Position numbers and translations under genes: made by a program
Source: an uncultured virus (IMG/VR IMGVR_UViG_3300022753_002012)
Taxonomy: Duplodnaviria > Heunggongvirae > Uroviricota > Caudoviricetes
IMG/VR virus record: IMGVR_UViG_3300022753_002012
DNA length: 64,000 nucleotides
Reading direction: 5' to 3' (one strand)
Notes under the pieces: model-generated
The model's database searches: none
The model's input: only the letters and a program-made list of their open reading frames with translations
What the model was told of the DNA's origin: nothing
Shown here: positions 6,809 to 64,000 of the stretch, in pieces
How the letters are laid out: each line of letters begins with the position of its first letter
Numbering within the stretch: the stretch's first letter is position 1

Positions 6809-6839
6809 GAGGTTGCTATTATATTTTTGGAGCGACCTC
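6809..6839. repeat. 31-bp imperfect palindrome, copy 1 (related to 41716-41746)
   Basis: GAGGTTGCT-13nt-AGCGACCTC. Confidence 0.6.
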
Positions 6840-8418
6840 AAATTGTGATTTCCGTTCCGCTTTGGAATATGAATATCAGCTTTCCGTCATTCATTACCTT
6901 GACGCGGTCTATGGTCAAAAGCCACAGGGTCGTATCGAAGCCGAGGAGCTTGCTTTCGGTGCTTTTGAAGGCGTTGATGAAGTCCATAAAGGCATCGGCT
7001 CTGCCTTGACGAGCCAAGCGCTCTTGTTCCAAGAGGGCAAGCTCTGAGTTGGCTGTTTCATATCGTGCTGTGTAACCGTTATATTTTTCGATGTAGCCTG
7101 TTTGATCCTGGGCGCTTGTGGAGTTGTCTTGTATGAGCTTTCGTATGAGTTGGGAGACAATCTCCATCTCTTCAATAAGGCTTTCGCGCTTGCGGTCAAT
7201 TTCGGTACAATCGGTAAGGTAATCGCATACCATTTTGCAGTTGGCAATAATCTCATCCTTGGAATCAAACAGGGTGTTGAAGGCTTCCACGAACTTCTCT
7301 TTGATAATTTCTTCGGTGAGGTGGGGAGTCGTGCATTTTTCTTTGCCACGCTTGAATTTGTCGTTGCATTGGAGTATGATTTTGCGGTACTTCGGTATGT
7401 TGGAACTCCAAACCTTGGCTCCAAAGAAGGCTCCGCAATCACCGCATATAATTCGTGATGCGAAGATGCCGTTGCCGCTATACTTTCTGCCAAGGGTTCT
7501 GCGCCTTGCGAACTCTTTCTGAACACGCTCCCACTCTTCGGGCGGAATGATAGCCTCGTGGCTGTTTTCAACGTAGTATTGCGGAATCTCACCCTCGTTC
7601 ACTTTTTTCTTTTTGGAAAGGAAATCCACCGTAAAGGTCTTTTGAAGAAGGGCAGCGCCTTTGTATTTTTCGTTGGTCAGCATACTTTCAATGGTGCTGA
7701 CCGACCACGCATCTCTGCCCATCGGTGTGGGGATGCCATCAGCGGTAAGTTCTTGTGCTATCATCCAAGTGGTCTTTCCGTGAATGAAGTCTCTGTAAAT
7801 GCGACGTACAATGACCGCCTGTTCCTCGTTTATCACGATGCTTCCGTCATCGCCTTTGTCGTAGCCGAGAAAGCTGGCAAAGGGAATAAGTACCTTGCCG
7901 TCAGCCGCACTTTTGCGTTTGCTCCAAGTGATGTTCTCGGAGATGCTGCGGCTTTCTTCCTGGGCTAAGGACGACATAATGGTGAGGAGCAACTCTCCCT
8001 TGCTATCAAGCGTCCATATGTTTTCTTTTTCAAAGTAAACCTCAACGCCTTTTTCCTTGAGCTTTCTTATGGTAACCAAGCTGTCGACCGTGTTTCTTGC
8101 GAATCGGCTGACCGACTTTGTAACGATGAGGTCAATCTTTCCTGCAAGGGCGTCCTCAATCATCTCGTTGAAGCCGTCTCGGTGCTTTGTGTTCGTGCCG
8201 CTGATACCTTCATCCGTGTAAACTTTTACGAAATCCCACTCGGGATTTTTGGTGATGTAATTGGTGTAGTAGTCGACCTGCGCCTCGTATGACGTAAACT
8301 GCTCATCGTGGTTGGTGGACACTCGTGCGTATCCGCAGACCTTCTTTTTGTAAACACCCATCATCGGAATGCGTGTCAGCGGATTGATTGTTGCGGGGAT
8401 AACTGTAATTTTAGCCAT
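6838..8418 (-). CDS. Large serine recombinase (integrase)
   Basis: GYARVSTN, KSVSRFARN, recombinase domain, CGDCG zinc ribbon, coiled coil. Confidence 0.95.
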   Translation of the reverse strand: MAKITVIPATINPLTRIPMMGVYKKKVCGYARVSTNHDEQFTSYEAQVDYYTNYITKNPEWDFVKVYTDEGISGTNTKHRDGFNEMIEDALAGKIDLIVTKSVSRFARNTVDSLVTIRKLKEKGVEVYFEKENIWTLDSKGELLLTIMSSLAQEESRSISENITWSKRKSAADGKVLIPFASFLGYDKGDDGSIVINEEQAVIVRRIYRDFIHGKTTWMIAQELTADGIPTPMGRDAWSVSTIESMLTNEKYKGAALLQKTFTVDFLSKKKKVNEGEIPQYYVENSHEAIIPPEEWERVQKEFARRRTLGRKYSGNGIFASRIICGDCGAFFGAKVWSSNIPKYRKIILQCNDKFKRGKEKCTTPHLTEEIIKEKFVEAFNTLFDSKDEIIANCKMVCDYLTDCTEIDRKRESLIEEMEIVSQLIRKLIQDNSTSAQDQTGYIEKYNGYTARYETANSELALLEQERLARQGRADAFMDFINAFKSTESKLLGFDTTLWLLTIDRVKVMNDGKLIFIFQSGTEITI

Positions 8419-9716
8419 TAGATTGCCTCCTTCCGTTTTCTTTTTTCGCTAAAGGCTTTTCTTTTTTCTTCGGTCCAGGATTCGCTGCGTGAACGGTCTT
8501 TCCACCGCGTTACAACCTCTTTTCCGTCCTTGAAGCAGAACACCAAGGTATTATCGCTTTCAGCTCGTACAAGGGAAATTTGGGCGTTGTAGGCGGTCTC
8601 GTCAAAGTTCTCAAGCCCCAACGCCTCGGCTGCTACTTCATAAAGCGTCTCTTCGGGAATCTGCTTTGAAGTGGGGCAGGCGGCTTTTCCTTGCATATTG
8701 TAAGTGGAGCAGATCCAAACGACCCTTGAAGGGGTTACCTTTCTGCGGTAGGATTTTCCGCAGTTCCCGCAGATGATTTTCGCTGTAAAAGGGTATTTGC
8801 GTGAGGCGACGGGGTGAGAGTATTTTTCAGACTTTTTGGCAATCATCTCTTGCACTTGGCAGAACACCGAAGCGGGGATAATTGCCTCATGGCTTTCTTC
8901 CACGTGATACATTGGAAGTTCACCTTGATTTACGCATCGTACCTTTTCTATGTGGTTGTTGGTGTAAAAGCGTTGTAGGAGCAGGTTGCCTGTGTAGGCG
9001 TAATTCTGCAAAACCTTCATAACGCTACTTTTGCACCATTTGCCATTTCGGTAAGAGGGAACACCGCTTGCGTTCAGGTCATTGGCAATGGCATTCATTC
9101 CTTTGCCGCTGATGTAAGCGTCAAAAATACTACGGACGATTTTTGCTTGCTCCTCGATAATAACGTATTTGCCGTTCTCCATCCTGTAGCCGAGCATCGT
9201 GCCGTTCCAGGGGAGTCCCTCTTCAAAGTTCTTTTTGACGCGCCACTTCATATTTTCGCTCATTGAGTAGCTTTCTTCTTGAGCGTAGGACGCGAGGATG
9301 GTAAGCATCAGCTCGCCCTCGGCGCTAATCGTGTGAATATTCTGTTCCTCAAAGAAAACGTCAACGCCGATATCCTTTAGCTCTCGAACCGTCTGCAGTA
9401 GAGTTACGGTGTTTCTTGCAAAGCGGGAGATGCTCTTTGTCATTATCATTGTGACTTCGCCTCTGCGACAAGCCTCGACCAATCGGAGAAAATTCTCACG
9501 GTTGTCTTTGGTCCCCGTTACTGCCTCATCCGCATAAACACCGCAATATAACCATCCCGGTTGTCTTTGGATGTAGCTTGAAAAATAACTGACTTGCTCG
9601 GAGAGCGAATGGAGCATCGCGTCCTTTCCGCTTGAAACACGGCAGTAGGCAGCAACCTTGATTACTTGTTCTCGTTTGGGTTTGTCGTGCTTTACTTGTA
9701 CTACGATTCTATCCAT
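8418..9716 (-). CDS. Large serine recombinase (second)
   Basis: AYCRVSSG, KSISRFARN, CGNCG zinc ribbon. Confidence 0.95.
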   Translation of the reverse strand: MDRIVVQVKHDKPKREQVIKVAAYCRVSSGKDAMLHSLSEQVSYFSSYIQRQPGWLYCGVYADEAVTGTKDNRENFLRLVEACRRGEVTMIMTKSISRFARNTVTLLQTVRELKDIGVDVFFEEQNIHTISAEGELMLTILASYAQEESYSMSENMKWRVKKNFEEGLPWNGTMLGYRMENGKYVIIEEQAKIVRSIFDAYISGKGMNAIANDLNASGVPSYRNGKWCKSSVMKVLQNYAYTGNLLLQRFYTNNHIEKVRCVNQGELPMYHVEESHEAIIPASVFCQVQEMIAKKSEKYSHPVASRKYPFTAKIICGNCGKSYRRKVTPSRVVWICSTYNMQGKAACPTSKQIPEETLYEVAAEALGLENFDETAYNAQISLVRAESDNTLVFCFKDGKEVVTRWKDRSRSESWTEEKRKAFSEKRKRKEAI

Positions 9717-11139: not shown

Positions 11140-11913
11140 TTATTGAAGATTTTCAATAAAGATTTGGTTCAATTCATCCCAGCTCTTCTGAACATCTTTT
11201 GGGTAGTCGGCAAGGAGTGCTTCTATCTCTTCGATAGATGAATCAAGATAATTGTTTATAACATCTATTCGTTTGCCTTCGCCGAGTTCCGATGTGGTCA
11301 TCTTCATACGAAGAAGCTCGTTTACTGCAGGTGCAATATCGGGAATCAGGCATTTTTCTGCAAGTTCCGAGAATTGCATAGGGGGAGGACTGTTCTTTTC
11401 AAGAATCCATCTGCATGCGAGAAGGGGTCGCAGGACATAAAAATACTTTTTCAGGCGTACCGTTTCACCGCGCAAATATTCTCTGTAATTGCTTTTAGCC
11501 GTACTCAAATAGTGATAAAGCCCCGACTTGGATTGGAAATAATCACTGATTACGCTGGATATCTTTTGCCACTCCGGCGTTGTTTTATAAACGATGGGAG
11601 AGTTGTTCCACTCAAAGAGCGTAGGATTAGATTTGTGAAGCAAAACAAGTGCTTTTTGCAAATCCCAACCATTGATATCAAGCGTTTCATCGAGTTGCCA
11701 TTCGATCACATCTCTTGTTTTATCTAAGCGTAGATAATAATCTCTGTGGCGAACATAGATAAAGCGTACATCAAAGTCGCTGTCGGGAGAAGGGAATCCC
11801 CAAGCACGGCTACCTGATTCCACACAGTGCAAAATGCGAATGTTTTCACGTTCCTCTATTTCTTTTAATTTTTCTGGAATGACGGTTTCTATAATGTGTT
11901 TTTCATTCACCAT
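11140..11913 (-). CDS. Pol-beta-type nucleotidyltransferase (YcgL/RlaP-like)
   Basis: ESGSRAWGFPSPDSDFDVRFIY, DINGWDL, LKKYFYVLRPLLA. Confidence 0.85.
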   Translation of the reverse strand: MVNEKHIIETVIPEKLKEIEERENIRILHCVESGSRAWGFPSPDSDFDVRFIYVRHRDYYLRLDKTRDVIEWQLDETLDINGWDLQKALVLLHKSNPTLFEWNNSPIVYKTTPEWQKISSVISDYFQSKSGLYHYLSTAKSNYREYLRGETVRLKKYFYVLRPLLACRWILEKNSPPPMQFSELAEKCLIPDIAPAVNELLRMKMTTSELGEGKRIDVINNYLDSSIEEIEALLADYPKDVQKSWDELNQIFIENLQ

Positions 11914-32488: not shown

Positions 32489-32833
32489 ATGAAAGAATTT
32501 AAATTTGATGGTTTTCAGATAATACACCCAACAACGTGCGGTATCCTTAAAGAGAGACGCATATTTTTAGGTATGACGCAGAAGCAGGTAGCAGAGAAGG
32601 CGGGTATTCCAATCCAAAGCTATCAGCGTTTTGAAAGCGGAGAGCGTAATATTATGACGGCATCGTTTCAAATGGCGTGTCGCGTGATTGAGGTGCTTGA
32701 AATGGATATATCCGCATTCTACCACAACGAGTATGTGCTGGGTGAGCCTACATACGATTCGCCCGAAGGCTTGCGTTTCAAGAAAACGGGCAAGCTGATC
32801 AACGAGGATATCGTTGATGATTCAGATAAATAA
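32489..32833 (+). CDS. XRE-family regulator, antisense moron between terminase and portal
   Basis: LKERR..LGMTQKQVAEKAGIPIQSYQRFESGER. Confidence 0.85.
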   Translation: MKEFKFDGFQIIHPTTCGILKERRIFLGMTQKQVAEKAGIPIQSYQRFESGERNIMTASFQMACRVIEVLEMDISAFYHNEYVLGEPTYDSPEGLRFKKTGKLINEDIVDDSDK

Positions 32834-34423
32834 AAGCCCGCGTTCATCATAAACGCTGGCGCTGGTATCGTTGCCACAACGAATTGCTCGGTCGAGCGCC
32901 ATAATCGCGGCAACTGCACCGTCAATCTTTTCTGTGGATTTTTCCTTGTCGGGTTTGATATTGCCCGCAGGGTCGGTACGAATAAAAATGTTATCCATCA
33001 TCCAATGGAGAACGGGATGCCCTCCGTGAGCAATCTTCTGCTCAAGCACGAGCTTCATCAGTTCCTTGGTCGGTGGGGACATATCTTTGAAGCCCTGTCC
33101 AAAGGGGACAACGGTAAATCCCATACCTTCAAGGTTCTGCACCATTTGAACAGCCCCCCAACGGTCAAAGGCAATCTCACGAATATTGAAACGCTCACCG
33201 AGTCGTTCTATGAATTTCTCAATGTAGCCGTAATGAACAACATTGCCTTCGGTGGTCTGTAGGAAGCCTTGACGCTCCCATATGTCATACGGCACGTGGT
33301 CGCGCCGAACACGAAGTTCAAGGCAATCTTCGGGAATCCAGAAGTATGGAAGAATGACATATTTATCGTCCTCGTCCCCAGGCGGGAATACCAGGACGAA
33401 TGCCGTAATATCCGTAGTGGAGGAGAGGTCGAGTCCGCCATAGCAAACACGACCTTCCAGATCGTCTTCATTTGTTGCGAAGGCGCACCTGTCCCACTTA
33501 TCCATAGGCATCCAACGGATGGCTTGCTTTACCCATTGATTTAAGCGGAGCTGTCGGAAGGCGTTTTCTTCTGCCGGGTTCTGCATTGCAGATTCGCAAG
33601 CGGCGCGGACTTTATCGATACCAACGGTAATACCGAGGGAGGGATTGGCTTTCTTCCATACCTTGGGGTCCGTCCAATCGTCCCCTTCATCTGCCCCATA
33701 GATAACGGGGTAGAAGGTAGGGTCGATTTTTCTGCCTTCCAGGATGTCTTTTGCCTTTTGATGGGTTTCGTAGCAAATAGATTTTGTGTCCGTTCCCGCC
33801 GTGGTGATAAGGAAGTACAGCGGTTGCATTCGTGCGTCACCCGAACCCTTTGTCATAACGTCAAAGAGTTTTCTGTTCGGCTGCGTATGAAGCTCATCAA
33901 AAACAACGCCGTGGATATTAAAGCCGTGCTTGGAATAAGCCTCGGCAGAGAGAACTTGGTAGAAGCTGTTGGTCGGTATATATTGGATACGCTTTGCCGC
34001 CGTTAATATCTTGACCCTCTTTGCGAGAGCAGGGCACATACGCACCATGTCTGCCGCCACTTCAAAAACGATAGAGGCTTGTTGACGATCTGCAGCACAG
34101 CCGTAAACCTCGGCTCTTTCCTCGTAGTCCCCACAAGTGAGGAGAAGGGCGACCGCTGCCGCAAGCTCCGATTTGCCCATTTTCTTTGGGATTTCGATGT
34201 AGGCAGTATTAAATTGCCGATAGCCGTTTGGCTTTAGGATTCCGAAGAGGTCCCGTATAATCTGTTCTTGCCAATCAAGTAGCTCAAAGCGTTTACCCGC
34301 CCATGTGCCTTTGGTATGGCAGAGCTGTTCAATAAAATTTACGGCGTGGTCGGCAGCCACCGCATTATAGCGAGAGTCTTTTGCCTTGAACTTTGTTGGC
34401 TTGTATTTTTTACGTGTTGCGAT
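32822..34423 (-). CDS. terL: Terminase large subunit (probable ATC start at 34423; GTG 34360 is the alternative)
   Basis: IPKKMGKSEL Walker A, VFDELH Walker B, GGLDLSSTTD, KIDG. Confidence 0.93.
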   Translation of the reverse strand: MATRKKYKPTKFKAKDSRYNAVAADHAVNFIEQLCHTKGTWAGKRFELLDWQEQIIRDLFGILKPNGYRQFNTAYIEIPKKMGKSELAAAVALLLTCGDYEERAEVYGCAADRQQASIVFEVAADMVRMCPALAKRVKILTAAKRIQYIPTNSFYQVLSAEAYSKHGFNIHGVVFDELHTQPNRKLFDVMTKGSGDARMQPLYFLITTAGTDTKSICYETHQKAKDILEGRKIDPTFYPVIYGADEGDDWTDPKVWKKANPSLGITVGIDKVRAACESAMQNPAEENAFRQLRLNQWVKQAIRWMPMDKWDRCAFATNEDDLEGRVCYGGLDLSSTTDITAFVLVFPPGDEDDKYVILPYFWIPEDCLELRVRRDHVPYDIWERQGFLQTTEGNVVHYGYIEKFIERLGERFNIREIAFDRWGAVQMVQNLEGMGFTVVPFGQGFKDMSPPTKELMKLVLEQKIAHGGHPVLHWMMDNIFIRTDPAGNIKPDKEKSTEKIDGAVAAIMALDRAIRCGNDTSASVYDERGLLFI

Positions 34424-34498: not shown

Positions 34499-34678
34499 TT
34501 ATTCCGCTTCACCAGTTAAAATGAAGTGAACATATTCTTTGCGGTGTTCTTCCAGGAAGATAACCAACTCGAAGTATTCCATTTCGTAGGCAAGGCGCAG
34601 AACCATATTTGTGTCAAACATATTCGTCAGCCCCGTGGCACGGATTGCGAGGATTTGTTCTTTCACCTTATTTGTCAT
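34499..34678 (-). CDS. DUF5049-like small protein
   Basis: VKEQILAIRATGLTNMFD..YVHFILTG. Confidence 0.75.
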   Translation of the reverse strand: MTNKVKEQILAIRATGLTNMFDTNMVLRLAYEMEYFELVIFLEEHRKEYVHFILTGEAE

Positions 34679-34907
34679 CGTCAATCCTCCTACAAGCATC
34701 CTCACCGTAAATAACACCAAGGCTTGAGCCGATATCCCAACGCACATGAATTGTGCCTGTATCATCAACGTGCTTCACGGTGCCTTTGCAACCGGGAACC
34801 AAGTCTGTGCGGTATGGGTCGCTCATTCGTACAAGTTCAACACGTGCACCATTCGGAAACCTCTCCCTTAAGACTTCCAATGTGGCTTTGCTTATTCCGA
34901 ACATCAC
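34668..34907 (-). CDS. DUF4314-like protein
   Basis: GARVELVRMSDPY, GTVKHVDDTGTIHVRWDIGSSL. Confidence 0.8.
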   Translation of the reverse strand: MMFGISKATLEVLRERFPNGARVELVRMSDPYRTDLVPGCKGTVKHVDDTGTIHVRWDIGSSLGVIYGEDACRRIDDDK

Positions 34908-35581
34908 TCGTTTTCCTCCTTTGCGTTTTTAAATGCGGATGAACCTTCAAGGTTTCGGAGCAGAATTTTTCGCTCCGTCTTGTATTCGTTGCCGATGAAG
35001 CCGAGACGAAGGAGGAAGCATCGGAATGCGTGCTTCTCGTTGTCGGTCTCTTTTTCCTTTGCGGTGACACGCTTTTGGTTCCGCGCCATCTCGCAGAGCT
35101 TGCAAATAAAAGTATCATAGGCTTTCAGCTCGTCTGGGGTAGGCTGTCCCTTGAACCAGGGGAATGAAACCTTGGTGTCGGTGATCTCAAGCGGAAGGCT
35201 GTCCGTTCCCAGGGCTTTCTTGATAAGGTGTCCCTTGGCTGCGATAAGTGCCTTGAGGTTTTCAAGGTTGCTTTCGGTAAAAAGGCTTTTTGGCATCGAA
35301 ATACAAATGCCGAGAGACTCCTCCTCGTCATCGGAAGTGTCCTCGGCACTCATATCGATATCAAAGCCCTCGTCATAAAGGTGTTCCATCAGCTGCTCAA
35401 GCGTCTCCTCGTCAATGCCGTCCTCATAATGAAGGCAACCGTTCTTATCAACGGTAAAGTCCTTGATTTCGTAGGCAAAGCTGGGCGCTCCCTTGTACTG
35501 TGCAGGCCAATCGAGCCATTCTGCGATGGTGGTTACCAGGCGCTTGCGTTCAGCGCCGTTTGCGTGGATTGTAATCGTCAT
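34904..35581 (-). CDS. Conserved prophage protein (often labelled virulence-related protein)
   Basis: YKGAPSFAY, NEKHAFRCFLLRLGFIG, LLRNLEGSSAFK. Confidence 0.75.
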   Translation of the reverse strand: MTITIHANGAERKRLVTTIAEWLDWPAQYKGAPSFAYEIKDFTVDKNGCLHYEDGIDEETLEQLMEHLYDEGFDIDMSAEDTSDDEEESLGICISMPKSLFTESNLENLKALIAAKGHLIKKALGTDSLPLEITDTKVSFPWFKGQPTPDELKAYDTFICKLCEMARNQKRVTAKEKETDNEKHAFRCFLLRLGFIGNEYKTERKILLRNLEGSSAFKNAKEENE

Positions 35582-35610
35582 GTGCGTATGACCTCCTTGT
35601 TTTTTTTATG

Positions 35611-35654
35611 GTACACACATATTAACTCCAAAAGCGAAATATATCCAGTCATTT
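35611..35654 (-). promoter_or_regulatory. Promoter-like motif shared with 9734-9777
   Basis: 31/44 identity, upstream of AAGGAGGT RBS. Confidence 0.5.
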
Positions 35655-35724
35655 TCGACATTTTCCAAGGTAGAATATGTGGCTCGTTTTTTGTAAATAA
35701 TTTGTGTAATATAGACGTTGCCTA

Positions 35725-35753
35725 TTGAAAAAACCACTTTTTTGTGATATAAT
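35725..35753 (+). promoter_or_regulatory. Sigma-A promoter driving riboswitch
   Basis: TTGAAA-17-TATAAT with TG extension. Confidence 0.75.
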
Positions 35754-35761
35754 AAAGGCAA

Positions 35762-35893
35762 CCTATAAAGAGTGCGTGAGGGACAAGCCCGTTGACCGCA
35801 CAGCAACCTACCAAATGGCAAGGTGCTAATGCTTGAACGATGGGATGATATATGATGCTTTCAATCCTGTCGTAACGATGGGATTGTTTTTTT
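35762..35893 (+). promoter_or_regulatory. SAM-I (S-box) riboswitch lacking P4, with terminator expression platform
   Basis: CCTAT-AAAGAG, P2 TGCG/CGCA with GA/TGA kink-turn and GGG-ACAAG-CCC, P3 AGCAACCT..AGGTGCT, pseudoknot CAAG/CTTG, GATGGG; terminator 35862-35893. Confidence 0.85.
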
Positions 35894-35936
35894 ATGCTCT
35901 CTTGTAGGAAATATTTTTTATAAGGAGCATAATATT

Positions 35937-36245
35937 ATGCGTACAATCAAATCTCTCACACAAAACACAGAAAAGGTCTTCATCTCTTGTGCAACGCAAA
36001 AGGCTGCAATGCAGTTCTTACTGAATGCAGAAAAAGAAGGTATCCGTTTTGCCAACGGCACGGCTCCAACGCAAGGGAGTATCAGCCATTGCTATTGTCT
36101 CCATGCCGATGGAACATTGTGGTATGTCGGTTGGGCGGGGCAAATGTATTATCATCAGAACGAGGCGCACCTAACAAAGATCGATTACGAGAAATACGAA
36201 GGCGGGGCAGAGGACTATTTTATTCATCGTCCTGAACAAAGCTAA
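35937..36245 (+). CDS. Hypothetical 102-aa protein under SAM riboswitch control
   Basis: AAGGAG RBS, ATG; no recognisable enzyme motif. Confidence 0.75.
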   Translation: MRTIKSLTQNTEKVFISCATQKAAMQFLLNAEKEGIRFANGTAPTQGSISHCYCLHADGTLWYVGWAGQMYYHQNEAHLTKIDYEKYEGGAEDYFIHRPEQS

Positions 36246-36269
36246 ATTAATCAAACTAAATATAACTTA

Positions 36270-36298
36270 TTGACAAAAAAGGCATTTTGGTATATAAT
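36270..36298 (+). promoter_or_regulatory. Perfect consensus sigma-A promoter
   Basis: TTGACA-17-TATAAT. Confidence 0.75.
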
Positions 36299-36304
36299 TA
36301 ATGC

Positions 36305-36422
36305 AGGGATGATACTCAAAGCACATAAAGTTGTTCAAAGGTTATGTACCCCATGTTATCGTTATCCCTAATGTGAGAAGCAACCGCCTAACTTGTCAAG
36401 GTATAGGCGGTTGTTTTATTTT
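36305..36422 (+). ncRNA. Putative ~118-nt small RNA
   Basis: Promoter, long 5' hairpin (AGGGAT/ATCCCT, ACATAA/TTATGT), terminator CAACCGCCTA/TAGGCGGTTG-TTTT; no RBS-led ORF. Confidence 0.55.
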
Positions 36423-36436
36423 ATGCAAGATACTGT

Positions 36437-38743
36437 TTATTCATCATCCTGCATCGAGTTGAAATACTCAATACCAGCAAGCACAAAGAATACACAGGGA
36501 AGAGCCACTCCGTTGCCCCAAAGCTTATACTCTGCAGAGTCGGAATGAGGGTGTTCCAGCCAACGGCGCACCTGCTTTTCGGTTTTTGGTTTGCAAGTGC
36601 CGATGACCCTTGCGTAGGTGTCCCATACCTCTTGCCAAAAACGAACATCCTGGATGGTCGGATACGGCTCATCAAGGTTTGAACACCAATGGTCCGGGAA
36701 GCCTTGGAGTCTTGCACACTCGGTAGGTGTGAGTCTGCGGACGGTATAGCTTGCTTCCATCACGCCATTATGGTGTCCGGGGCAAGTGCCGTTGACTACG
36801 GTGTTGCCACAGTTTTCAAGGAAATACTGACCGACATCACGGGAAGCGGAGGGGTCGAAGCCGTGAGGCTGAACCACCGCGCCCGGACCTTTGGCAACCA
36901 TCGTGGGCTGCGTTTCTTCGGAGAAGGATGGTGCGAACTTAGCGTTCTTGCCCTGGTTAAAGGTGTCTCTGCCAATGCCGTAACATACAGCGTTCGGGTC
37001 TTTGAAGTCACGTGCCATCAACGTAGGTGACTTTTCCTCTTCAATTTGCGTAAAGCTTCCAGTGGTCATAGCGTAAACGTGTACTGCGTGGCGATCCACG
37101 GTGTTCAGCGTATACATAACTTCGGACTCTTTATATCCGTCTCCCTGGTGGGAAGGACGCGCGCCGTTGCCTTCAATGACAAAGGTTCCTCCTTTTACAC
37201 AAACGGCAGGCTCACCGCCGTGGGTGCAGGTCAACGTAGGTGATTTTTCCTCGGTCACGTTACAAGCGGACTTGCCACCACCTTGGTCTACGCATACCAC
37301 GGCAATGCCGCCTTGATTGCAAGAGGGATTACCACCATTGCCATCAAGGGTGCGAGAGGTGTCGGCTTCGTAGATACCGCTGTGAGGATTGGAGGACTTC
37401 ATTGCGTTGGAGTCCTTGGAGCAAATGCCAAAAGGCTGAAGGACGCAGTTGAAGTTGTCCTTGTCTGGCATACGCTGATTACCACCCGCGTTCTGCTTTG
37501 TGAGCGTGGGAGATACTTGCTTGCCGTCCCAAGTGGTGGGAACGAAAACGGTCTGATCGTTGTTGCAAGCTAGGGTCGCGGACTTGTCGGTCTGTATCAA
37601 AGCACCCTTACCACCGCCTTCACAGCCGGAACGAATCTTCATAACGAGAGGGACATTGTTTCCGCCCGTTCCCATACGAGAGGAGAGGGTTTGAACCTTA
37701 TCTTCCTTCTCGATCTTGATGCGACCATCGTTTGGATGGTTTTCAAGAGCAACGGTGGCGGGAACAACACCCGCACGGAGCGTAGGAGAGCGTTCCTCCT
37801 CAAATCCGATGCTTCTGCTGTTGGCAGAGTGTTCGGTGCAAAAGCCTGCGGAATCCATCACACAAGGCGGATGATGTGCCTCGGCGCGGAGAGTGCAAGT
37901 GACCTCCTCGGTAACATCCATACGATTGCCACCCTGGTCGTTAAGCACCACTCCGTTTCTGCCCGTAGACATACCACAGTTGACACCGAGCGTTGCCGCC
38001 TTATCTCCCGTTAGGTCTGCGTTGTACCCATCGATGCCTGACGCTCCAGGGCAACCTTCAAGATCGTTGGTAGCTCTTTGCCACGCACGGAAGCCCTCCG
38101 CAGAATACCTTGACACGCCCTCGGACTTAAATAATATGTCTCCGGCACGCCCACCTGCAAAATCTGCGACAAGAAAGATGCGGCGTCTTCGTTGGGGGAC
38201 TCCCCAGTATTGAGCGTCGAGAGTTCTGTATGCCACGCTCCATCCGTCTCCCAGGTAGAGGTCTGCGTAAGGCCATCCGCCTTCAGGCGCAGGCACCTCG
38301 GTCCCTTCCTCTGCGATGCCGATGACCGCTTCGAGGACGGCTTTGAAGTCTTTCCCGTTGTTAGAGGAGAAGGCTCCGGGGACATTCTCCCAAACGATGT
38401 ATCTTGGATATTTTCCATTCGTTGCGTTCCTCATTTCTTTAATGATACGGACGGCTTCATAAAAAAGAGATGACCTTGAACCATCAAGACCATCTCGTTT
38501 GCCCGCCACCGACATATCCTGGCAAGGCGAGCCGAAAGTGATTATATCCACGGGTTCTATCTTACCGCCGTCCATAGCAGAGATATCTCCGTAGTGTTTC
38601 ATATAGGGAAAGCGTTTCGTGGTAACTCTTACGGCAAAAGGCTCCACCTCGGATGCCCAAACGGGTGTGATACCCGCCAGGATACCTCCAAGAGGAAAAC
38701 CCCCGGAGCCATCGAATAAGCTCCCAAGTTTAAGATTCGACAT
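36437..38743 (-). CDS. DNA (cytosine-5) methyltransferase with very long repetitive variable region
   Basis: LFDGSGG, GSPCQD, ENVPG, PQRRRRIF, RRLTPTECARLQGFPD, WGNGV. Confidence 0.92.
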   Translation of the reverse strand: MSNLKLGSLFDGSGGFPLGGILAGITPVWASEVEPFAVRVTTKRFPYMKHYGDISAMDGGKIEPVDIITFGSPCQDMSVAGKRDGLDGSRSSLFYEAVRIIKEMRNATNGKYPRYIVWENVPGAFSSNNGKDFKAVLEAVIGIAEEGTEVPAPEGGWPYADLYLGDGWSVAYRTLDAQYWGVPQRRRRIFLVADFAGGRAGDILFKSEGVSRYSAEGFRAWQRATNDLEGCPGASGIDGYNADLTGDKAATLGVNCGMSTGRNGVVLNDQGGNRMDVTEEVTCTLRAEAHHPPCVMDSAGFCTEHSANSRSIGFEEERSPTLRAGVVPATVALENHPNDGRIKIEKEDKVQTLSSRMGTGGNNVPLVMKIRSGCEGGGKGALIQTDKSATLACNNDQTVFVPTTWDGKQVSPTLTKQNAGGNQRMPDKDNFNCVLQPFGICSKDSNAMKSSNPHSGIYEADTSRTLDGNGGNPSCNQGGIAVVCVDQGGGKSACNVTEEKSPTLTCTHGGEPAVCVKGGTFVIEGNGARPSHQGDGYKESEVMYTLNTVDRHAVHVYAMTTGSFTQIEEEKSPTLMARDFKDPNAVCYGIGRDTFNQGKNAKFAPSFSEETQPTMVAKGPGAVVQPHGFDPSASRDVGQYFLENCGNTVVNGTCPGHHNGVMEASYTVRRLTPTECARLQGFPDHWCSNLDEPYPTIQDVRFWQEVWDTYARVIGTCKPKTEKQVRRWLEHPHSDSAEYKLWGNGVALPCVFFVLAGIEYFNSMQDDE
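38011..38418 (-). CDS. Nested alternative-frame ORF, putative methyltransferase beta-type subunit
   Basis: Same strand, different frame, GAGGA RBS; LSQILQVGVPETYYLSPRACQGILRRA resembles the MTase variable-region entry motif. Confidence 0.6.
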   Translation of the reverse strand: MENIQDTSFGRMSPEPSPLTTGKTSKPSSKRSSASQRKGPRCLRLKADGLTQTSTWETDGAWHTELSTLNTGESPNEDAASFLSQILQVGVPETYYLSPRACQGILRRASVRGKELPTILKVALERQASMGTTQT

Positions 38744-39998
38744 TTCGTTCCTCCACTTCTTTTACAAGATCGGAATAAGGAATACGCTCGCCACCGCGAA
38801 TGACATACACATTATCGCTGTCCCCGGTATCCTCAACGTAACGGCGAAGAATGACCGAAGCATACTTTTCATCCAGCTCCATCGTATAGCAGATACGGTT
38901 TGTTTTCTCGCAAGCCATAAGCGTAGAGCCGGAACCGCCGAAGGTATCTACCACAATAGCGTTTTCCTGCGAGGAGTTGGTGAGCGGATAAGACAAAAGG
39001 TCAAGCGGTTTGCTTGTAGGGTGGTTGGCGTTACGCTTGGGTTTGTCGAAGTTCCAAATGGTGGTCTGCTTGCGGTCGGAATACCATCTGTGCTTTCCGT
39101 TTTTAAGGAAGCCATAAAGCACGGGTTCGTGCTGCCATTGATAATCCGAGCGACCGAGAACGAGGCTGTTCTTCGCCCAAATGCAAACACCGGCAAGATG
39201 GAAGCCCGCGTCAATGAATGCCTGACGGAAGGTTAAGCCTTCGGTGTCAGCGTGGAAAACATAAGCGGAACCGCCAGCCTCAAGGTGGGATACCATATTA
39301 TCAAAGGATGCGCGAAGGAAGTTGTAAAACTCTTCATCCTTCATACTGTCGTTCTGAATGGTAAGCCCGCTTTTGCTTTTGAAGGAAACACCATAGGGCG
39401 GGTCTGTTACGATAAGGTTGGCGCGTTTGCCATTCATAAGCGTAGCAACGTCATCGGCGTTTGTTGCATCACCGCAAACAAGCCTGTGTCTACCGACTAC
39501 CCAAACATCACCTTTTTCAACGAAGGCGGCTTTTTCAAGAGCAGCGGTAAGGTCGTAGTCATCATCTTCGGCTTCGGATTCTTCCTTGCCGAAAAGGTCT
39601 GCGATTTCATCTGCGCCAAAGCCCGTAAGAGCAATATCGAAGGACTCTGCCTGCAACGATTCAATTTCAACGCGGAGAAGTTCTTCGTCCCATCCCGCGT
39701 CAAGTGCCATTCTGTTGTCGGCAATGATATACGCTTTCTTTTGCGCCTCGGTCAGATGGTCAACAAAGACACACGGCACTTCGGTGATACCTTCCTCACG
39801 GGCAGCAAGAACACGACCGTGACCGGCAATGATGCCAAAGTCACGGTCGATGATGACGGGATTTATGAAACCGAACTCTCGGAGGCTTGAACGGAGTTTG
39901 CCGATCTGTTCCGGGGAGTGGGTTCGCGCATTGTTTACATAAGGTACGAGCTTGTCAAGGGAGACAAGCTGCATATCGGTTGTGGTCTTCTTGCTCAT
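38730..39998 (-). CDS. ParB-domain N6A/N4C DNA methyltransferase
   Basis: PYVNNARTH, IAGHGR; TDPPY, HPTSKP, DTFGGSGST. Confidence 0.92.
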   Translation of the reverse strand: MSKKTTTDMQLVSLDKLVPYVNNARTHSPEQIGKLRSSLREFGFINPVIIDRDFGIIAGHGRVLAAREEGITEVPCVFVDHLTEAQKKAYIIADNRMALDAGWDEELLRVEIESLQAESFDIALTGFGADEIADLFGKEESEAEDDDYDLTAALEKAAFVEKGDVWVVGRHRLVCGDATNADDVATLMNGKRANLIVTDPPYGVSFKSKSGLTIQNDSMKDEEFYNFLRASFDNMVSHLEAGGSAYVFHADTEGLTFRQAFIDAGFHLAGVCIWAKNSLVLGRSDYQWQHEPVLYGFLKNGKHRWYSDRKQTTIWNFDKPKRNANHPTSKPLDLLSYPLTNSSQENAIVVDTFGGSGSTLMACEKTNRICYTMELDEKYASVILRRYVEDTGDSDNVYVIRGGERIPYSDLVKEVEERNVES

Positions 39999-41032
39999 AT
40001 AAGCGCCTCCCGATAATGGCAGCCCTCTGCAAGAACTTCATAGTCGCGGTCGAGCAGATTGAGCTTCTCAATGATGCCCAGGGGTGTGAGATCGTAATTC
40101 TCACGGACATAGGTTTCGAGAGGGATGTTCTTGTCATTTTTGATAACTACAGATACAGGCTCCGCAATGCCGATGGCATAACCGAGCTGAACCTCGCACC
40201 ACTTCAGCGCGTAGATGTCTAGCAACTTGCAAGCCAGGTGACGCGCCATATACGAAGCGGAGCGGTCTACCTTCGTCGGGTCTTTGCCGGAGAAGGCACC
40301 GCCGCCCACGGCACAGTAGCCACCGTACTGGTCGCATACAATTTTACGTCCGGTCAAACCGCAATCGGCCGTGGGACCGCCAAGCGTCCAAGTACCGGAG
40401 GGATTGATAATAAGTTCGGGGAGAGGGTTCTCACCGAAGATATCCTTAATAAGTTTTGTGACTTCCGCGCTGACGTCATCCAGCGTTGACATATGCTTGT
40501 GGCAGACCGAAACGAGGATCGTGTGAACCGAGGCAAAGCCAGGCTCAGCATCAAGGTCAACCGTTACCTGGGTTTTGGCATCTCCGATAAAGGGACAGTT
40601 AGGATTGGTGTCGATGTCGTCTTCAATGGCACGGATAATCTTGTTGGCAAGGTCAAAGCCGAAAGGCAGCTTGCTTTCCGTTTCCGCTGTAGCGTATCCA
40701 AACATAATACCCTGGTCGCCCGCACCGATTTTGGTGTCGGAGGATACGGCTTCGTTGATCTCGTGGGACTGCTTGCCGATAAGGTTAATCACCGCGTCAA
40801 CGGTGTAGCCGAGCTTCGCAGCAACCCTACGCACGATGTCGATATAATCGACTTTAGCGTTTGTAGTGATTTCACCGCCGAGAACGACCGTGTTATCCTT
40901 TACCATCGTCTCGATTCCGCAGTGGCTGTTTCTGTCCAGGGAGAGACATTCGGTAAGGATAGCGTCGGAAATCTGGTCGGCGTATTTGTCGGGGTGGTAC
41001 TTGCTGATTTGTTCTGTTGAAAAAAGTCTCAT
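39995..41032 (-). CDS. metK: S-adenosylmethionine synthetase
   Basis: HPDK.ADQISD, GAGDQGIMFGYA, DAKTQVT, GLTGRKI, GGGAFSGKDPTKVDRS. Confidence 0.95.
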   Translation of the reverse strand: MRLFSTEQISKYHPDKYADQISDAILTECLSLDRNSHCGIETMVKDNTVVLGGEITTNAKVDYIDIVRRVAAKLGYTVDAVINLIGKQSHEINEAVSSDTKIGAGDQGIMFGYATAETESKLPFGFDLANKIIRAIEDDIDTNPNCPFIGDAKTQVTVDLDAEPGFASVHTILVSVCHKHMSTLDDVSAEVTKLIKDIFGENPLPELIINPSGTWTLGGPTADCGLTGRKIVCDQYGGYCAVGGGAFSGKDPTKVDRSASYMARHLACKLLDIYALKWCEVQLGYAIGIAEPVSVVIKNDKNIPLETYVRENYDLTPLGIIEKLNLLDRDYEVLAEGCHYREALI

Positions 41033-42245: not shown

Positions 42246-42599
42246 TTATTTATTCTCATTTTTTATTGCAAAACTTTCGAGCAGTGCTTTTTCAATCCGC
42301 GCCATAGTAACGGTATCCATATGACCGATGCGCTTTTCAAGCCTTGATTTATCTATGGTGCGTATCTGCTCCAGTAGCACCGTAGAGCCGGGATACAGCC
42401 CACAGCTCCTGTCCCTAACTACAACGTGGGTCGGTAGGACGTGTTTTGTGCGACTGCTTGTAATAGCGGCTATGACGGTTGAGCTGTAATAATTGCCGAT
42501 GTCATTTTGAAGAATAACCACGGGTCGGTATCCGCCTTGCTCCGAACCATAGCCCCACCCGAGGTCTGCCATAAAGATGTCTCCTTTTCTAACCCTCAT
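42246..42599 (-). CDS. mazF: PemK/MazF-family endoribonuclease, no adjacent antitoxin
   Basis: KGDIFMADL..GSEQGGYRPVVILQND, LPTHV, LLEQIRTIDKSRL. Confidence 0.88.
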   Translation of the reverse strand: MRVRKGDIFMADLGWGYGSEQGGYRPVVILQNDIGNYYSSTVIAAITSSRTKHVLPTHVVVRDRSCGLYPGSTVLLEQIRTIDKSRLEKRIGHMDTVTMARIEKALLESFAIKNENK

Positions 42600-42606
42600 A
42601 AGCACC

Positions 42607-43032
42607 TCAAATAGTAATGGGATTTTCAGGCACCTTTACGTGCTGAAGTGCATTGCCGTGCCAGCGCCTTATTGTGCGTTCTGCCGCGTTCAGCTTTAAG
42701 GCAATTTGATCCCAAGTATAATTGTGAATGTAGCGGTAGCGGAGAACGGTCTGCTCGTCTTTATCGGTAACCTCTTCAATGACGCCCCTTATCTGTTCCT
42801 TCAGGTCTACGAGCTTGTCAATCTCAGCATTGATTTTTTGCTCCATATCCATAATCTTAATAAGACAACGCACGAAGGGAGGATCTGTCGGTCTAGTACC
42901 GCCGGGCTTTTCTTCCCAAGACGGGGAAGAGATGCTTGTTGACATCTGGCGTAACCTTGCGACCTCTTCCAAATCCGATGCAATACGCTGATCGAGCCTA
43001 TATGCCTGGCTCAAATATTCCTTTGCTCTCAT
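42607..43032 (-). CDS. RinA/ArpU-like (DUF1492) late transcriptional activator
   Basis: AKEYLSQAY, VLRYRYI..TWDQIA..L..AERTIRRWH..AL. Confidence 0.8.
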   Translation of the reverse strand: MRAKEYLSQAYRLDQRIASDLEEVARLRQMSTSISSPSWEEKPGGTRPTDPPFVRCLIKIMDMEQKINAEIDKLVDLKEQIRGVIEEVTDKDEQTVLRYRYIHNYTWDQIALKLNAAERTIRRWHGNALQHVKVPENPITI

Positions 43033-43262
43033 ACGCGGCATTCCTTTCTGATACGCTCCATAATGAATTCACCATCAATGGTAGTCAGCACTCCAAACCA
43101 GTCGGAGCGAAAAAACGCCTCTAGCTCTTTTAGCTCCTGTTCGGTCTGCTTGCTTTTATTTCGATAAAGGCTGCGTTTATATACTTTTTTGTAATCCTTT
43201 GCAGCAGAAAGAATGATTGCATTTGCTAGATTTTCATAGCAAGTATCTATTGGCATTTTCAC
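43029..43262 (-). CDS. Conserved hypothetical phage protein
   Basis: YENLANAII.AAKDY, LEAFFRSDWF. Confidence 0.75.
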   Translation of the reverse strand: MKMPIDTCYENLANAIILSAAKDYKKVYKRSLYRNKSKQTEQELKELEAFFRSDWFGVLTTIDGEFIMERIRKECRV

Positions 43263-62002: not shown

Positions 62003-62046
62003 CTTGCAATGATGAAAAATATCAAGAAATGGAGGGTCGACTCAAG

Positions 62047-62784
62047 ATGGCACAACAAGTGAAATCTAAACAGCGCGTAGCCGAGCGTGGAGAAGTTTTT
62101 ACTGCCGAGCGAGAGGTGCAGGCTATGTGCGATTTGGTGAAACAGGAAACCGAACGAATTGATAGCCGATTTTTAGAGCCGGCTTGTGGCGACGGCAACT
62201 TCTTATCCGTTATACTTAAAAGAAAACTTGAGATCGTAAAAAAGAAATATAGACGTAGCGCCTACGATTGGGAAAGAAACTCCTTGCTGGCACTCGGTAG
62301 TATGTACGGTGTTGATATTATGCTGGACAATGTCATAGCCTGTCAGGAACGCCTTTTTGAAATTTGGAATAAGGAATACAAAGCCGTTTGCAAAAAGGAA
62401 TGCAATGAGGAAACACGAGAGTCGGCTAGATTTATTTTAAGGCTAAATATCGTGTGTGGAAACGCACTCACACTTCTTTGCGTGGATGCACAGGGAAACG
62501 AGCTGAATGTTCCTATCATCTTTTCCGAGTGGACATTCCCGTTTAACGATGCTAGGATGCAACGCAAGGACTACACCTTTGCTGAACTTCTTGCCGCAGG
62601 GGACAAGCTCGAAAAGAAAGATGATCAATTAGGTCTATTCGATGACGAAGAGGCACCAAGCGAAGAAGGTAATTTCCTTCAGCAATACATTGCTCACTAC
62701 AGACGGATTAGTGAGGATGATACCAGATGGCGTGAAACCTACCGTCACATAGAAATTAAGGAGGAGGACAGTGGCAATGGCTAA
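62047..62784 (+). CDS. SAM-binding DNA methyltransferase-like subunit of R-M locus
   Basis: GEVFT, LEPACGDGNFL, YGVDI, NIVCGNAL; no NPPY. Confidence 0.8.
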   Translation: MAQQVKSKQRVAERGEVFTAEREVQAMCDLVKQETERIDSRFLEPACGDGNFLSVILKRKLEIVKKKYRRSAYDWERNSLLALGSMYGVDIMLDNVIACQERLFEIWNKEYKAVCKKECNEETRESARFILRLNIVCGNALTLLCVDAQGNELNVPIIFSEWTFPFNDARMQRKDYTFAELLAAGDKLEKKDDQLGLFDDEEAPSEEGNFLQQYIAHYRRISEDDTRWRETYRHIEIKEEDSGNG

Positions 62785-64000
62785 TGGACTTTTTGATAAT
62801 GTTTATAACCCCGATGTGCTTTCGTGCTTAGCAAATCTTTCTAACGATGAGGTGTTTACTCCTCCCGAAGTTGTAAATCAGATGCTCGATATGCTTCCCC
62901 AGGAACTGTTCCGTAATCCTGATACCACGTTTTTAGACCCTGCTTGCAAAACAGGCGTATTCCTTCGTGAGATTGCAAAGCGTTTGATTGTCGGACTTGA
63001 ACCGCAGTTTCCGGACTTGCAAGAACGCCTTGACCATATTTTCCATAATCAACTTTATGGTATAGCTATAACGGAATTGACAAGCTGGTTATCCCGTCGC
63101 GGTGTATATTGTTCTAAATTTCCTCATAGCGAGTTTTCGGTATCCTTTTTTGACGAAGATCACCAAGACGGCAATGTAAGATTTAAGAGAATGCATCACA
63201 CATGGGATACTGCTAAACTGATGACCCTTGACGGAAAGAAACTTGGCAAGTGTATTTATTGTGGAGCAACACGTGATGAATATGACCGTGATGACGCTCT
63301 TGAAACATACGCATACGAATTTATCCACCGAAATTCCCCAGAGGAGATTTTTAATATGAAGTTTGATGTTATTATAGGTAATCCTCCATATCAATTGAGT
63401 GACGGGGGCAATGGAAAAAGTGCAAAACCCATTTATCAACTTTTTGTTGATAGAGCAATGAAGTTGAACCCTCGGTATCTTTCCATGATTATACCATCTC
63501 GTTGGTTTTCTGGTGGCAAAGGATTGGATGATTTTAGAAAGTCGATGCTTTCGGACAGAAGAATGAGAAAACTGGTTGATTATGAGAATTTCAAGGATGT
63601 TTTCCCAGGAGTAGATCTTGCAGGTGGCGCTTGTTATTTCTTGTGGGAAAAAGATTACGATGGCATGTGCGAGGTTGTGAACTTCAGTCGAGATAATCCA
63701 TCTACAATGATGCGCTATTTAGATGAAAATGATACATTTATCCGCCAAAATACCGCAATTGAAATTGTCAAAAAGATTCAGTCTCAAAGTAAAAAATACT
63801 TAAATGAACGTGTTTCGGCAAGAAAACCGTTTGGTCTTCCCACAAACTATATTCCCAAGGATAAGGGTATTCCTTGCTGGTTTATACAGCGTATTGGTTT
63901 GAGATATGCAGATCCCAGTGAAGTGGATGATTCCAACGGATTCCTCGATAAATGGAAGTTCTTAATCCCCAAATCACCAATTGCAGGACAAACAGATTTT
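62777..64000 (+). CDS. Eco57I-like adenine methyltransferase/R-M enzyme, runs off window
   Basis: Manual translation: NPDVLSCLANLSNDEVFTPP, LDPACKTGVFL, MKFDVIIGNPPYQ, IPSRWF.GGKGL. Confidence 0.88.
   Translation, partial: MANGLFDNVYNPDVLSCLANLSNDEVFTPPEVVNQMLDMLPQELFRNPDTTFLDPACKTGVFLREIAKRLIVGLEPQFPDLQERLDHIFHNQLYGIAITELTSWLSRRGVYCSKFPHSEFSVSFFDEDHQDGNVRFKRMHHTWDTAKLMTLDGKKLGKCIYCGATRDEYDRDDALETYAYEFIHRNSPEEIFNMKFDVIIGNPPYQLSDGGNGKSAKPIYQLFVDRAMKLNPRYLSMIIPSRWFSGGKGLDDFRKSMLSDRRMRKLVDYENFKDVFPGVDLAGGACYFLWEKDYDGMCEVVNFSRDNPSTMMRYLDENDTFIRQNTAIEIVKKIQSQSKKYLNERVSARKPFGLPTNYIPKDKGIPCWFIQRIGLRYADPSEVDDSNGFLDKWKFLIPKSPIAGQTDF

Follow-up and report, generated by a model that had tools for sequence, protein, structure and literature searches.

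A P4-less SAM-I riboswitch joined to an uncharacterised family of small proteins in gut Clostridia and their phages

The stretch of DNA analysed here (64,000 nucleotides (nt); hereafter the window) belongs to an uncultured virus of the Caudoviricetes (IMG/VR record IMGVR_UViG_3300022753_002012). It is a Clostridia-type prophage encoded on the minus strand and flanked by other mobile or defence DNA. On the plus strand, opposite to the phage operon, positions 35725-36245 hold a compact cassette in which a promoter, an aptamer of the SAM-I (S-box) riboswitch class, a terminator and an open reading frame (ORF) of 102 amino acids follow one another. An earlier account made from the letters alone (the sequence-only reading) had described this as a self-contained prophage cassette, with a SAM-I switch gating an unknown protein expected at low S-adenosylmethionine (SAM). 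The aptamer, the terminator and antiterminator, and the linkage of switch and gene among homologues all agree with that description.

A search of the whole window against Rfam returned a single match, RF00162 (SAM-I), at 35760-35846 on the plus strand, with the full model (positions 1-108) aligned and a score of 61.6 bits (E 7e-12), above the curated gathering score of 44.4 bits. Within clan CL00012 (SAM-I, SAM-IV and SAM-I/IV), competition retained RF00162, and one weaker same-clan match was dropped. The S-box-like aptamer that had been recognised by eye at 35762-35844 is therefore placed in the SAM-I family by its own Rfam model. P1 pairs 35760-35767 with 35839-35846, P2 with its kink-turn loop spans 35772-35801, P3 spans 35802-35831, and the pseudoknot joins CAAG (35784-35787) to CTTG (35832-35835). 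The conserved junction nucleotides are all present, as are P1, the P2 internal loop and P3. In the RF00162 alignment P4 is absent (17 model positions deleted) and the top P1 pair is A-G, both as the sequence-only reading had it; the second P1 pair, A-A, is also non-standard.

Nineteen related aptamers, each 85-91 nt long, could be aligned with a mean column identity of 83% and 41 invariant columns, and P4 is missing from every one of them. Covariation was tested on the SAM-I secondary structure minus P4, plus the pseudoknot, against 500 shuffles. In the alignment 91.7% of cells are paired and 12 pairs are changed on both sides, a result that none of the 500 shuffles equalled; pairing falls to 27-41% once partners are slid by one to three columns. 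P2 is 100% and P3 96% paired, each with compensatory changes. The pseudoknot, whose unusual CAAG/CTTG version in the window had been described as compensated, is likewise 100% paired and shows compensatory changes at three of its four pairs, with CTGC/GCAG and CAGA/TCTG among the versions found in relatives. Our own model of the P4-less aptamers (R1) scores the window aptamer at 105.5 bits. Judged by sequence match and covariation, the window RNA is a bona fide SAM-I aptamer of the P4-less form, and the 19 aptamers are a coherent P4-less subclass that makes up one tight sequence group.

The loss of P4 has precedents. According to the published account in PMC12714719, some natural SAM-I sequences have no P4, aptamers can work without it, P4-less aptamers both natural and designed respond to SAM, and affinity drops as P4 is shortened. 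Since natural P4-less SAM-I aptamers are on record there and are described as working, we class the window aptamer as a P4-less SAM-I variant, and the loss as a known variation rather than a new class. The P4-less variants of that account are from a group of Actinomycetota and are reported to function with lower affinity. The cassette aptamers share the deletion of P4 with them, but come from gut and rumen Clostridia and their phages, form one tight group and are tied to one gene family.

Upstream of the aptamer lies a sigma-70-type promoter (TTGAAA-17-TGaTATAAT, 35725-35753, plus strand), which matches 11 of 12 consensus positions and carries the upstream TG of an extended -10 element, in line with the sequence-only reading. 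From this placement, transcription is predicted to start at about 35760, the first aptamer base. Comparable promoters stand upstream at many homologue loci. Downstream of the aptamer, 35862-35893 (plus strand) forms a predicted intrinsic terminator of -13.1 kcal/mol, with an 11-bp stem (35862-35886), a TAA loop and a run of seven Ts; this stem and T-run were the only terminator-like site reported by a scan of 35400-36600. The 11-nt sequence AACGATGGGAT is present twice, forming first the 3' strand of P1 and then the 3' arm of the terminator. Pairing of the P1 3' strand with the terminator 5' arm gives a predicted antiterminator (35837-35873, plus strand) of -12.7 kcal/mol in the minimum-energy fold, nearly isoenergetic with the terminator. 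The fold of 35755-35905 has a z of -4.1 and is more stable than all 200 of its shuffles, and the antiterminator forms in it unconstrained. The terminator/antiterminator logic proposed from the repeat in the window recurs elsewhere: 20 of 21 leaders have a terminator that repeats the P1 3' strand, the exception being locus L030.

A further conserved element lies directly after the T-run. The 16-nt segment ATGCTCTCTTGTAGGA (35894-35909, plus strand) is, on its pairing energies, a candidate anti-Shine-Dalgarno and anti-aptamer element. The ribosome-binding region ATAAGGAGCAT (35920-35930, plus strand; Shine-Dalgarno (SD) sequence AAGGAG at 35922-35927) resembles TATAAAGAGTGC at the 5' side of the aptamer, and the segment pairs with the SD region at -17.1 kcal/mol and with aptamer positions 2-22 at -19.3 kcal/mol, both better than 200 of 200 shuffles. 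Among the 21 leaders, 16 form a duplex with the SD that is stronger than those of at least 95% of shuffles (median -15.1 kcal/mol), and in 17 the same segment can alternatively pair with the aptamer 5' half (P1 5' strand, J1/2 and P2 5' strand; median -18.6 kcal/mol). For 19 leaders the unconstrained ensemble was compared with one in which the aptamer was blocked in folding, as a mimic of the SAM-bound state. In the window, the unpaired probability of the SD rises from 0.00 under the block to 0.33 without the constraint; the blocked value is at most 0.12 in 14 of the 19 leaders, and for most of the 19 the SD is more open in the unconstrained ensemble (in L004 it goes from 0.02 to 0.71). This second conserved element 3' of the terminator suggests, on the folding models, a double lock that is both transcriptional and translational. 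At the chromosomal locus L030 (leader about 1800-1926, minus strand) there is no terminator, and the SD-masking helix is kept directly after the aptamer; this is possibly a purely translational version of the same switch.

The ORF itself (35937-36245, plus strand) encodes a member of an unnamed family of small alpha/beta proteins. Searches of Pfam, PHROGs, NCBIfam and PADLOC matched no family to it and found no domain of the methionine, cysteine or SAM pathways, as the sequence-only reading had supposed. HMMER, run over 1.84 billion representatives, found 210 proteins with E-values up to 0.001, 17 of them at E<=1e-10; most have 90-125 amino acids. A profile search gave 46 relatives, none with a Pfam domain, whose source names are 'hypothetical protein' only. 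Residues F27, A31, E34, G35 and D83 are nearly invariant in the family. The ratio of non-synonymous to synonymous substitution rates (dN/dS) is 0.06-0.34 among close viral variants for the 9 of 11 pairs in which it could be computed (of the other two, one was of unequal length and one had saturated dS). These values point to a real gene under purifying selection.

AlphaFold2 gives a confident alpha/beta model from 96 sequences (predicted local distance difference test score 89, predicted template-modelling score 0.80). Foldseek found no PDB match to it at E<=0.001, the independent aligner VIA-align reached a best Z of 3.7 over 48,161 chains, and the family profile reached a best E-value of 0.17 against PDB sequences. 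The BFVD library of viral structures returned uncharacterised phage proteins only, at E 4e-3 or weaker. Toxin-like domains, membrane segments and nuclease motifs were not found in the family, and the PADLOC models, which cover described defence systems, matched neither the ORF nor eight relatives, fusions included. The family is neither acidic nor hydrophobic, with a median isoelectric point of 6.3 (below 6 in 42 and above 8 in 26 of 96 members). The product is thus modelled as a cytosolic protein of about 100 amino acids without known family or fold; the homology and structure searches, in which an ordinary methionine-pathway domain might have appeared, returned none.

C-terminal additions of various kinds occur in some relatives, the domain is present in tandem in one, and one (P0047) is fused to an N-terminal domain of the N-formylglutamate-amidohydrolase (FGase) type. 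Longer forms of 232-2000 amino acids did not appear at E<=1e-5, which is weak evidence. Several candidate identities were tried and set aside. A TusA match in one fusion (21 bits) lies below the cut-off, as does a D-amino-acid transaminase match (15.5 bits against a cut-off of 277). The Protein Atlas clusters closest to the ORF are unnamed; the nearest named one, Translat_reg/RegA, scored 0.84 with the ORF and 0.81 with a fused domain, below the level of a lead, and is absent among the structural matches listed. Matches of phmmer to giant RCC1-repeat proteins are not homology; they add up, repeat by repeat, a local resemblance to a beta-hairpin (HxxxLxxDGTLWxVG). The hairpin in question, HCYCLHADGTLWYVGWAG at about residues 50-68, resembles one blade of an RCC1 repeat, with 13 matched stretches in a protein of 2439 amino acids. 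A DNA-mimic anti-restriction protein is ruled out because the family is not acidic. A complex prediction for the cassette protein with the MetK dimer of the same genome gave a score of 0.01 (mark, 0.32).

Switch and gene occur together at every full-length locus compared. RF00162 lies upstream of a relative of the ORF, at a distance of 45-107 nt, in 15 of 16 loci (two IMG/VR copies of the window's phage, 12 loci in metagenome-assembled genomes, one metagenome contig and one viral contig), and the one locus without it, L014, holds a remnant truncated at its 5' end, with residues 32-87 only. The gene was found in 6 of 400 sampled Clostridia genomes, one of them the centre genome, and all five new loci have the switch. 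The switch is also present in phage PV036439 and in L035, which belongs to a more distant subfamily. In total, when copies identical to the window are left out, the P4-less switch stands at 20 of 20 distinct full-length homologue loci, at protein identities of 33-44%; this is the opposite of homologues never carrying the RNA, the outcome that the sequence-only reading had named as speaking against it. A scan of plasmids with the family alignment gave no match.

The association also holds in the reverse direction. A search pattern made of the P3 3' strand, J3/4 and the P1 3' strand in direct succession (the P4-less 3' end) is present in 27 IMG/VR contigs, which together have 18 distinct first-ORF sequences, and in 25 of the 27 the next gene is the family ORF. 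The other two switch copies precede ORFs outside the cassette family. That of L041 (712-1125) is 138 amino acids long, and that of L059 (3-467, minus strand) is partial, at least 155 amino acids long, and matches phrog_25593; both have the same P4-less leader. As these cases indicate, the leader is occasionally recruited for other cargo. Between loci whose coding sequences are too diverged to align as DNA, the leaders still share 73-91% identity, and for this reason the RNA module appears to be more constrained than the protein. On this comparative evidence, switch and ORF are inherited as one unit on mobile DNA.

In the window, the minus-strand genes run from replication functions to tail and serine recombinase genes across the cassette. 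A repressor region lies at about 52-53 kb. TerS, HNH, MazF and replication genes lie beyond a SAM synthetase gene (39995-41032), which is followed by genes for a ParB-N6 DNA methyltransferase (38730-39998) and a C5 cytosine DNA methyltransferase (36437-38743), all on the minus strand. The last of these is convergent with the cassette. Past the cassette come genes for a protein matching the PHROG 'amidoligase enzyme' (34904-35581), DUF4314 and DUF5049, then TerL (32822-34360), and the portal, protease, capsid and tail genes lie between TerL and the serine recombinases (6838-9716, minus strand). The minus-strand operon must traverse the cassette to reach terL. A strong terminator at about 36377-36420, between the ORF and the methylase stop at 36437, should end cassette transcripts before they reach the methylase gene in the window.

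A second promoter and a predicted terminated transcript lie in the 190-nt spacer 3' of the ORF. At 36270-36420 (plus strand) a perfect sigma-70 promoter (TTGACA-17-TATAAT, 12 of 12 positions) precedes a predicted transcript of about 115 nt with two hairpins, the second being the strong terminator (fold z of -4.5); no Rfam match and no convincing ORF were found in it. This candidate small RNA (36305-36420) occurs, among the loci compared, only in the identical IMG/VR copies of the window's phage. Elsewhere in the window, a MazF/PemK-type toxin gene (42246-42605, minus strand) lies directly downstream of a DUF1492/sigma-70 region-4 gene (42607-43041). In the region 34499-35581 (minus strand), the 225-amino-acid ORF that matches the PHROG 'amidoligase enzyme' has no counterpart in Pfam, and GGACT was not seen among the genes of the window; in L064 and L065, YAcAr/SLOG, DUF4314, Amidoligase_2 and GGACT genes form a conserved set between the methylases and TerL. 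The flanks at 1866-3752 (plus strand), 6838-9716 (minus strand) and 62029-64000 (plus strand) are further mobile or defence DNA. Genes of the flanking regions include a third large serine recombinase, DUF6551, an RlaP-type nucleotidyltransferase (11140-11910) and, at the window end, an Eco57I/MmeI-type restriction-modification methylase.

The same layout is found in other phages. Ruminococcus phage NatCom_28274 (PV036439, Ca. Heliusvirales) has an ORF homologue of 39% identity in the same antisense slot. The proviruses L064-L066, estimated as 92-100% complete, have the gene order of the window: TerS, a metK-like gene (in L066), N6 methylase, C5 methylase, the antisense cassette, YAcAr/SLOG, DUF4314, Amidoligase_2, GGACT and TerL. 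The cassette stands tail to tail with the C5 methylase in the window and in L034, L064, L065 and L066, and in the latter four the cassette ORF and the methylase gene share 11-20 nt at their 3' ends. The convergent partner in L015 is a PAPS-reductase-like gene adjoining a ParB-methylase gene, and there too the ORF reaches into its 3' end. No convincing terminator follows the ORF in L064 or L066. Two viral contigs of 128 and 152 kb (L067 and L068) have LPD29 proteins, an N6-methylase-SNF2 fusion, GmrSD_N and a 3D domain as neighbours, and a homologue of the superinfection-exclusion protein GP17 is encoded near the cassette in L068. According to PMC11283538, Ca. Heliusvirales are very widespread in human guts, and their genomes encode a C5 methyltransferase in 67% and a SAM synthetase in 58.9% of cases. 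The sequence-only reading had set the cassette antisense beside the phage metK and two methyltransferases. This is so in the window, but metK is not a regular companion of the cassette: of 10 cassette-bearing viral records, 2 contained PF02773, at a distance of 39-45 kb.

On bacterial contigs the surroundings vary. Neighbours include HsdR with LexA/UmuC (L013), UmuD/UmuC (L018), a C5 methylase (L008) and a recombinase (L012), as well as macro, ADP-ribosylglycohydrolase, RelB and DUF2726 genes, and in L007 the cassette sits between the housekeeping genes glnA and rny. The distribution of the family is patchy (the 6 of 400 Clostridia genomes given above), with mobile or variable neighbourhoods. 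Among the annotated loci the ORF is monocistronic and never lies inside a methionine or cysteine operon. Five cassette-bearing genomes have only one or two SAM-I matches each, namely that of the cassette (51-63 bits) and, in four genomes, a canonical switch with P4 (72-80 bits) in front of metK.

In textbooks, SAM riboswitches regulate sulfur metabolism. The cassette leader resembles the SAM-I (S-box) leaders of Firmicutes in its core, in P1-P3, the kink-turn loop and the pseudoknot between the P2 loop and J3/4, and in its OFF logic, where a terminator is opposed by an antiterminator built from the P1 3' strand. It differs from the usual S-box leader in having no P4, in the added SD-masking and anti-aptamer element, and in governing a small protein of an unnamed family on mobile DNA rather than a gene for methionine, cysteine or SAM. 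The difference is visible within single genomes, where the cassette aptamers (85-91 nt, 51-64 bits) are shorter and score lower than the metK leaders L019-L022 (98-103 nt, 72-80 bits). A second likeness is to the antisense S-box of the ubiG-mccBA operon of Clostridium acetobutylicum, as described in PMC2566862 and PMC9943018, where a SAM-I riboswitch lies convergent at the 3' end of a SAM-dependent methyltransferase operon and low-SAM read-through yields antisense transcription. Unlike that system, the cassette switch precedes a conserved and selected ORF, and in the window a terminator shields the methylase gene. Among open-access papers and bioRxiv we found none describing a phage SAM riboswitch that controls this gene, and the word 'riboswitch' is absent from the main text of the Heliusvirales paper (PMC11283538). 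The riboswitch class itself is known; what is new is the strictly conserved partnership of a P4-less SAM-I switch with an uncharacterised protein family on phage and other mobile DNA.

We think it probable that this partnership is an autonomous, horizontally mobile low-SAM expression cassette of gut Clostridia and their phages, in which a strong constitutive promoter drives one small protein gene by way of a P4-less SAM-I aptamer and its expression platform. The regulatory part of this explanation is the firmer one, and we hold it to be very likely on the sequence evidence. When SAM is bound, P1 would keep its own 3' strand, the downstream copy of that strand would close the terminator, and transcription would end at about 35893. 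When SAM is low, the P1 3' strand would pair with the terminator 5' arm and the full mRNA would be made. Both steps derive from the anatomy of the leader and the known behaviour of S-box leaders. In an additional step that we infer, 35894-35909 would mask the ribosome site in any transcript with a folded aptamer, and in SAM-free RNA it would instead pair with the aptamer 5' half, holding the aptamer open and freeing the SD. Because the segment would switch partner with the state of the aptamer, leaky read-through would stay untranslated and the ON state would be locked. The protein would thus be made only when SAM is low, and since the family is tied to the switch wherever it is found, its product may be needed only when SAM is scarce.

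Several points weigh against this explanation or parts of it. The double-lock model is one of thermodynamic folding in which ligand and pseudoknot are ignored, SD opening is slight or nil in 5 of the 19 leaders (L012, L013, L009, L003 and L030), and some of the complementarity between the anti-SD segment and the aptamer would arise in any case, as AAGGAG is similar to the conserved AAGAG of J1/2. The loss of P4 may weaken the affinity for SAM. Two of the 27 switch copies (L041 and L059) precede other ORFs of unknown type, and no methylase lies nearby at the chromosomal loci L003, L004, L007, L010 and L011. If the loss of P4 had gone so far as to kill the aptamer, the leader would be a decayed relic and the ORF would be expressed, or silent, regardless of SAM. 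The missing P4 and the two non-standard P1 positions fit such decay; however, the P4-less form is shared by 19 of 19 aptamers, whose P2, P3 and pseudoknot show compensatory changes, leader DNA remains 73-91% identical while the proteins are only 33-44% identical, and P4-less aptamers, natural and designed, are described as responding to SAM (PMC12714719), all of which makes decay highly improbable. A different view takes the RNA as an S-box that acts in antisense, low-SAM read-through being convergent transcription that throttles the methyltransferase and late operon; this would be compatible with a role for the protein. It draws on the 11-20 nt overlaps with a convergent gene in L034, L064, L065, L066 and L015 (a C5 methylase in four and the PAPS-reductase-like gene in one), on the lack of a convincing terminator in L064 and L066, on the minus-strand operon that crosses the cassette on its way to terL, and on the S-box antisense RNA that represses a methyltransferase operon at low SAM in the published precedent (PMC2566862, PMC9943018). 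Convergent antisense entry into the C5 methylase is plausible from the gene layout in L034, L064, L065 and L066, and a checkpoint-like effect through convergent transcription, akin to the lysis/lysogeny checkpoint raised in the sequence-only reading, is conceivable in these relatives. As the explanation of the cassette it is unlikely, given that a strong terminator separates the window ORF from the methylase stop, that the ORF is under purifying selection, and that the switch is kept at chromosomal sites with unrelated or co-directional neighbours.

The remaining alternatives concern what the protein does. Almost all SAM-I-regulated genes serve methionine, cysteine or SAM metabolism or transport (the S-box regulon), and from this base rate the protein could be expected to raise or spare SAM or methionine at low SAM, as an accessory factor, a small enzyme or a ligand-binding protein, with phages carrying it for the same reason that many carry metK. 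Such a role in SAM homeostasis would fit with the only other SAM-I switch controlling metK in four of five cassette-bearing genomes, with the fusion of P0047 to an FGase-type domain, and with the frequency of metK in Heliusvirales phages (58.9% of genomes in the account of PMC11283538). We nevertheless regard it as doubtful: no metabolic domain and no solved fold was matched, the gene is monocistronic and outside methionine and cysteine operons at the annotated loci, and its very patchy occurrence in mobile or variable neighbourhoods is unlike that of a core pathway gene. Alternatively, as the sequence-only reading had suggested, the switch might be an alarm that senses the collapse of SAM caused by an invading phage with a SAM lyase, and the protein an effector of abortive infection or growth arrest that protects lysogens. 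SAM-depleting lyases are known phage weapons (as described in PMC7877911 and PMC8406200), and the predicted tight shut-off by terminator and SD masking is what a harmful product would need. The prophage and variable-region contexts, the patchy distribution and the superinfection-exclusion gene near the cassette in L068 point the same way. Against this, PADLOC had no match for the ORF and eight relatives, the family has no toxin-like domain, membrane segment or nuclease motif, plain methionine starvation would trigger the switch too, and the location in the phage is the counter-defence and packaging block, not the ends that are expressed in lysogeny; we consider such an alarm quite unlikely.

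Returning to the low-SAM expression cassette that we favour, our guess about the role of its protein is a tentative one: it might be a 'methylation-failure' response factor that belongs to a DNA-methylation counter-defence module and would act once the DNA of the element or the cell can no longer be kept methylated. This guess derives from the phage cassettes that lie tail to tail with DNA methyltransferases between terS and terL, from the two large viral contigs that place the cassette beside polyvalent-protein and restriction-type domains, and from the second SAM-I switch that controls metK in the four genomes that have one. More speculatively, and in our estimate rather improbably, the cassette could be a conflict sensor in which a trimmed SAM-I aptamer detects the collapse of methylation capacity, whether by starvation or by the SAM lyase of a rival, and fires a new small effector, with convergent transcription into the methyltransferase and packaging operon as an additional output in Heliusvirales-type phages. 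If true, this would couple DNA protection and packaging to the supply of SAM.

From the perspective of riboswitch biology, a SAM switch is here welded to a protein family without a name, a fold match or metabolic neighbours. An otherwise intractable 'hypothetical protein' becomes directly testable, because its switch states the condition, low SAM, under which it is expected. Riboswitch engineering, too, could make use of the compact 87-nt aptamer with its possible double lock as a natural design. For the phages themselves, the position of the cassette beside their DNA methyltransferases suggests that they may monitor SAM, the cofactor of their own anti-restriction methylation.

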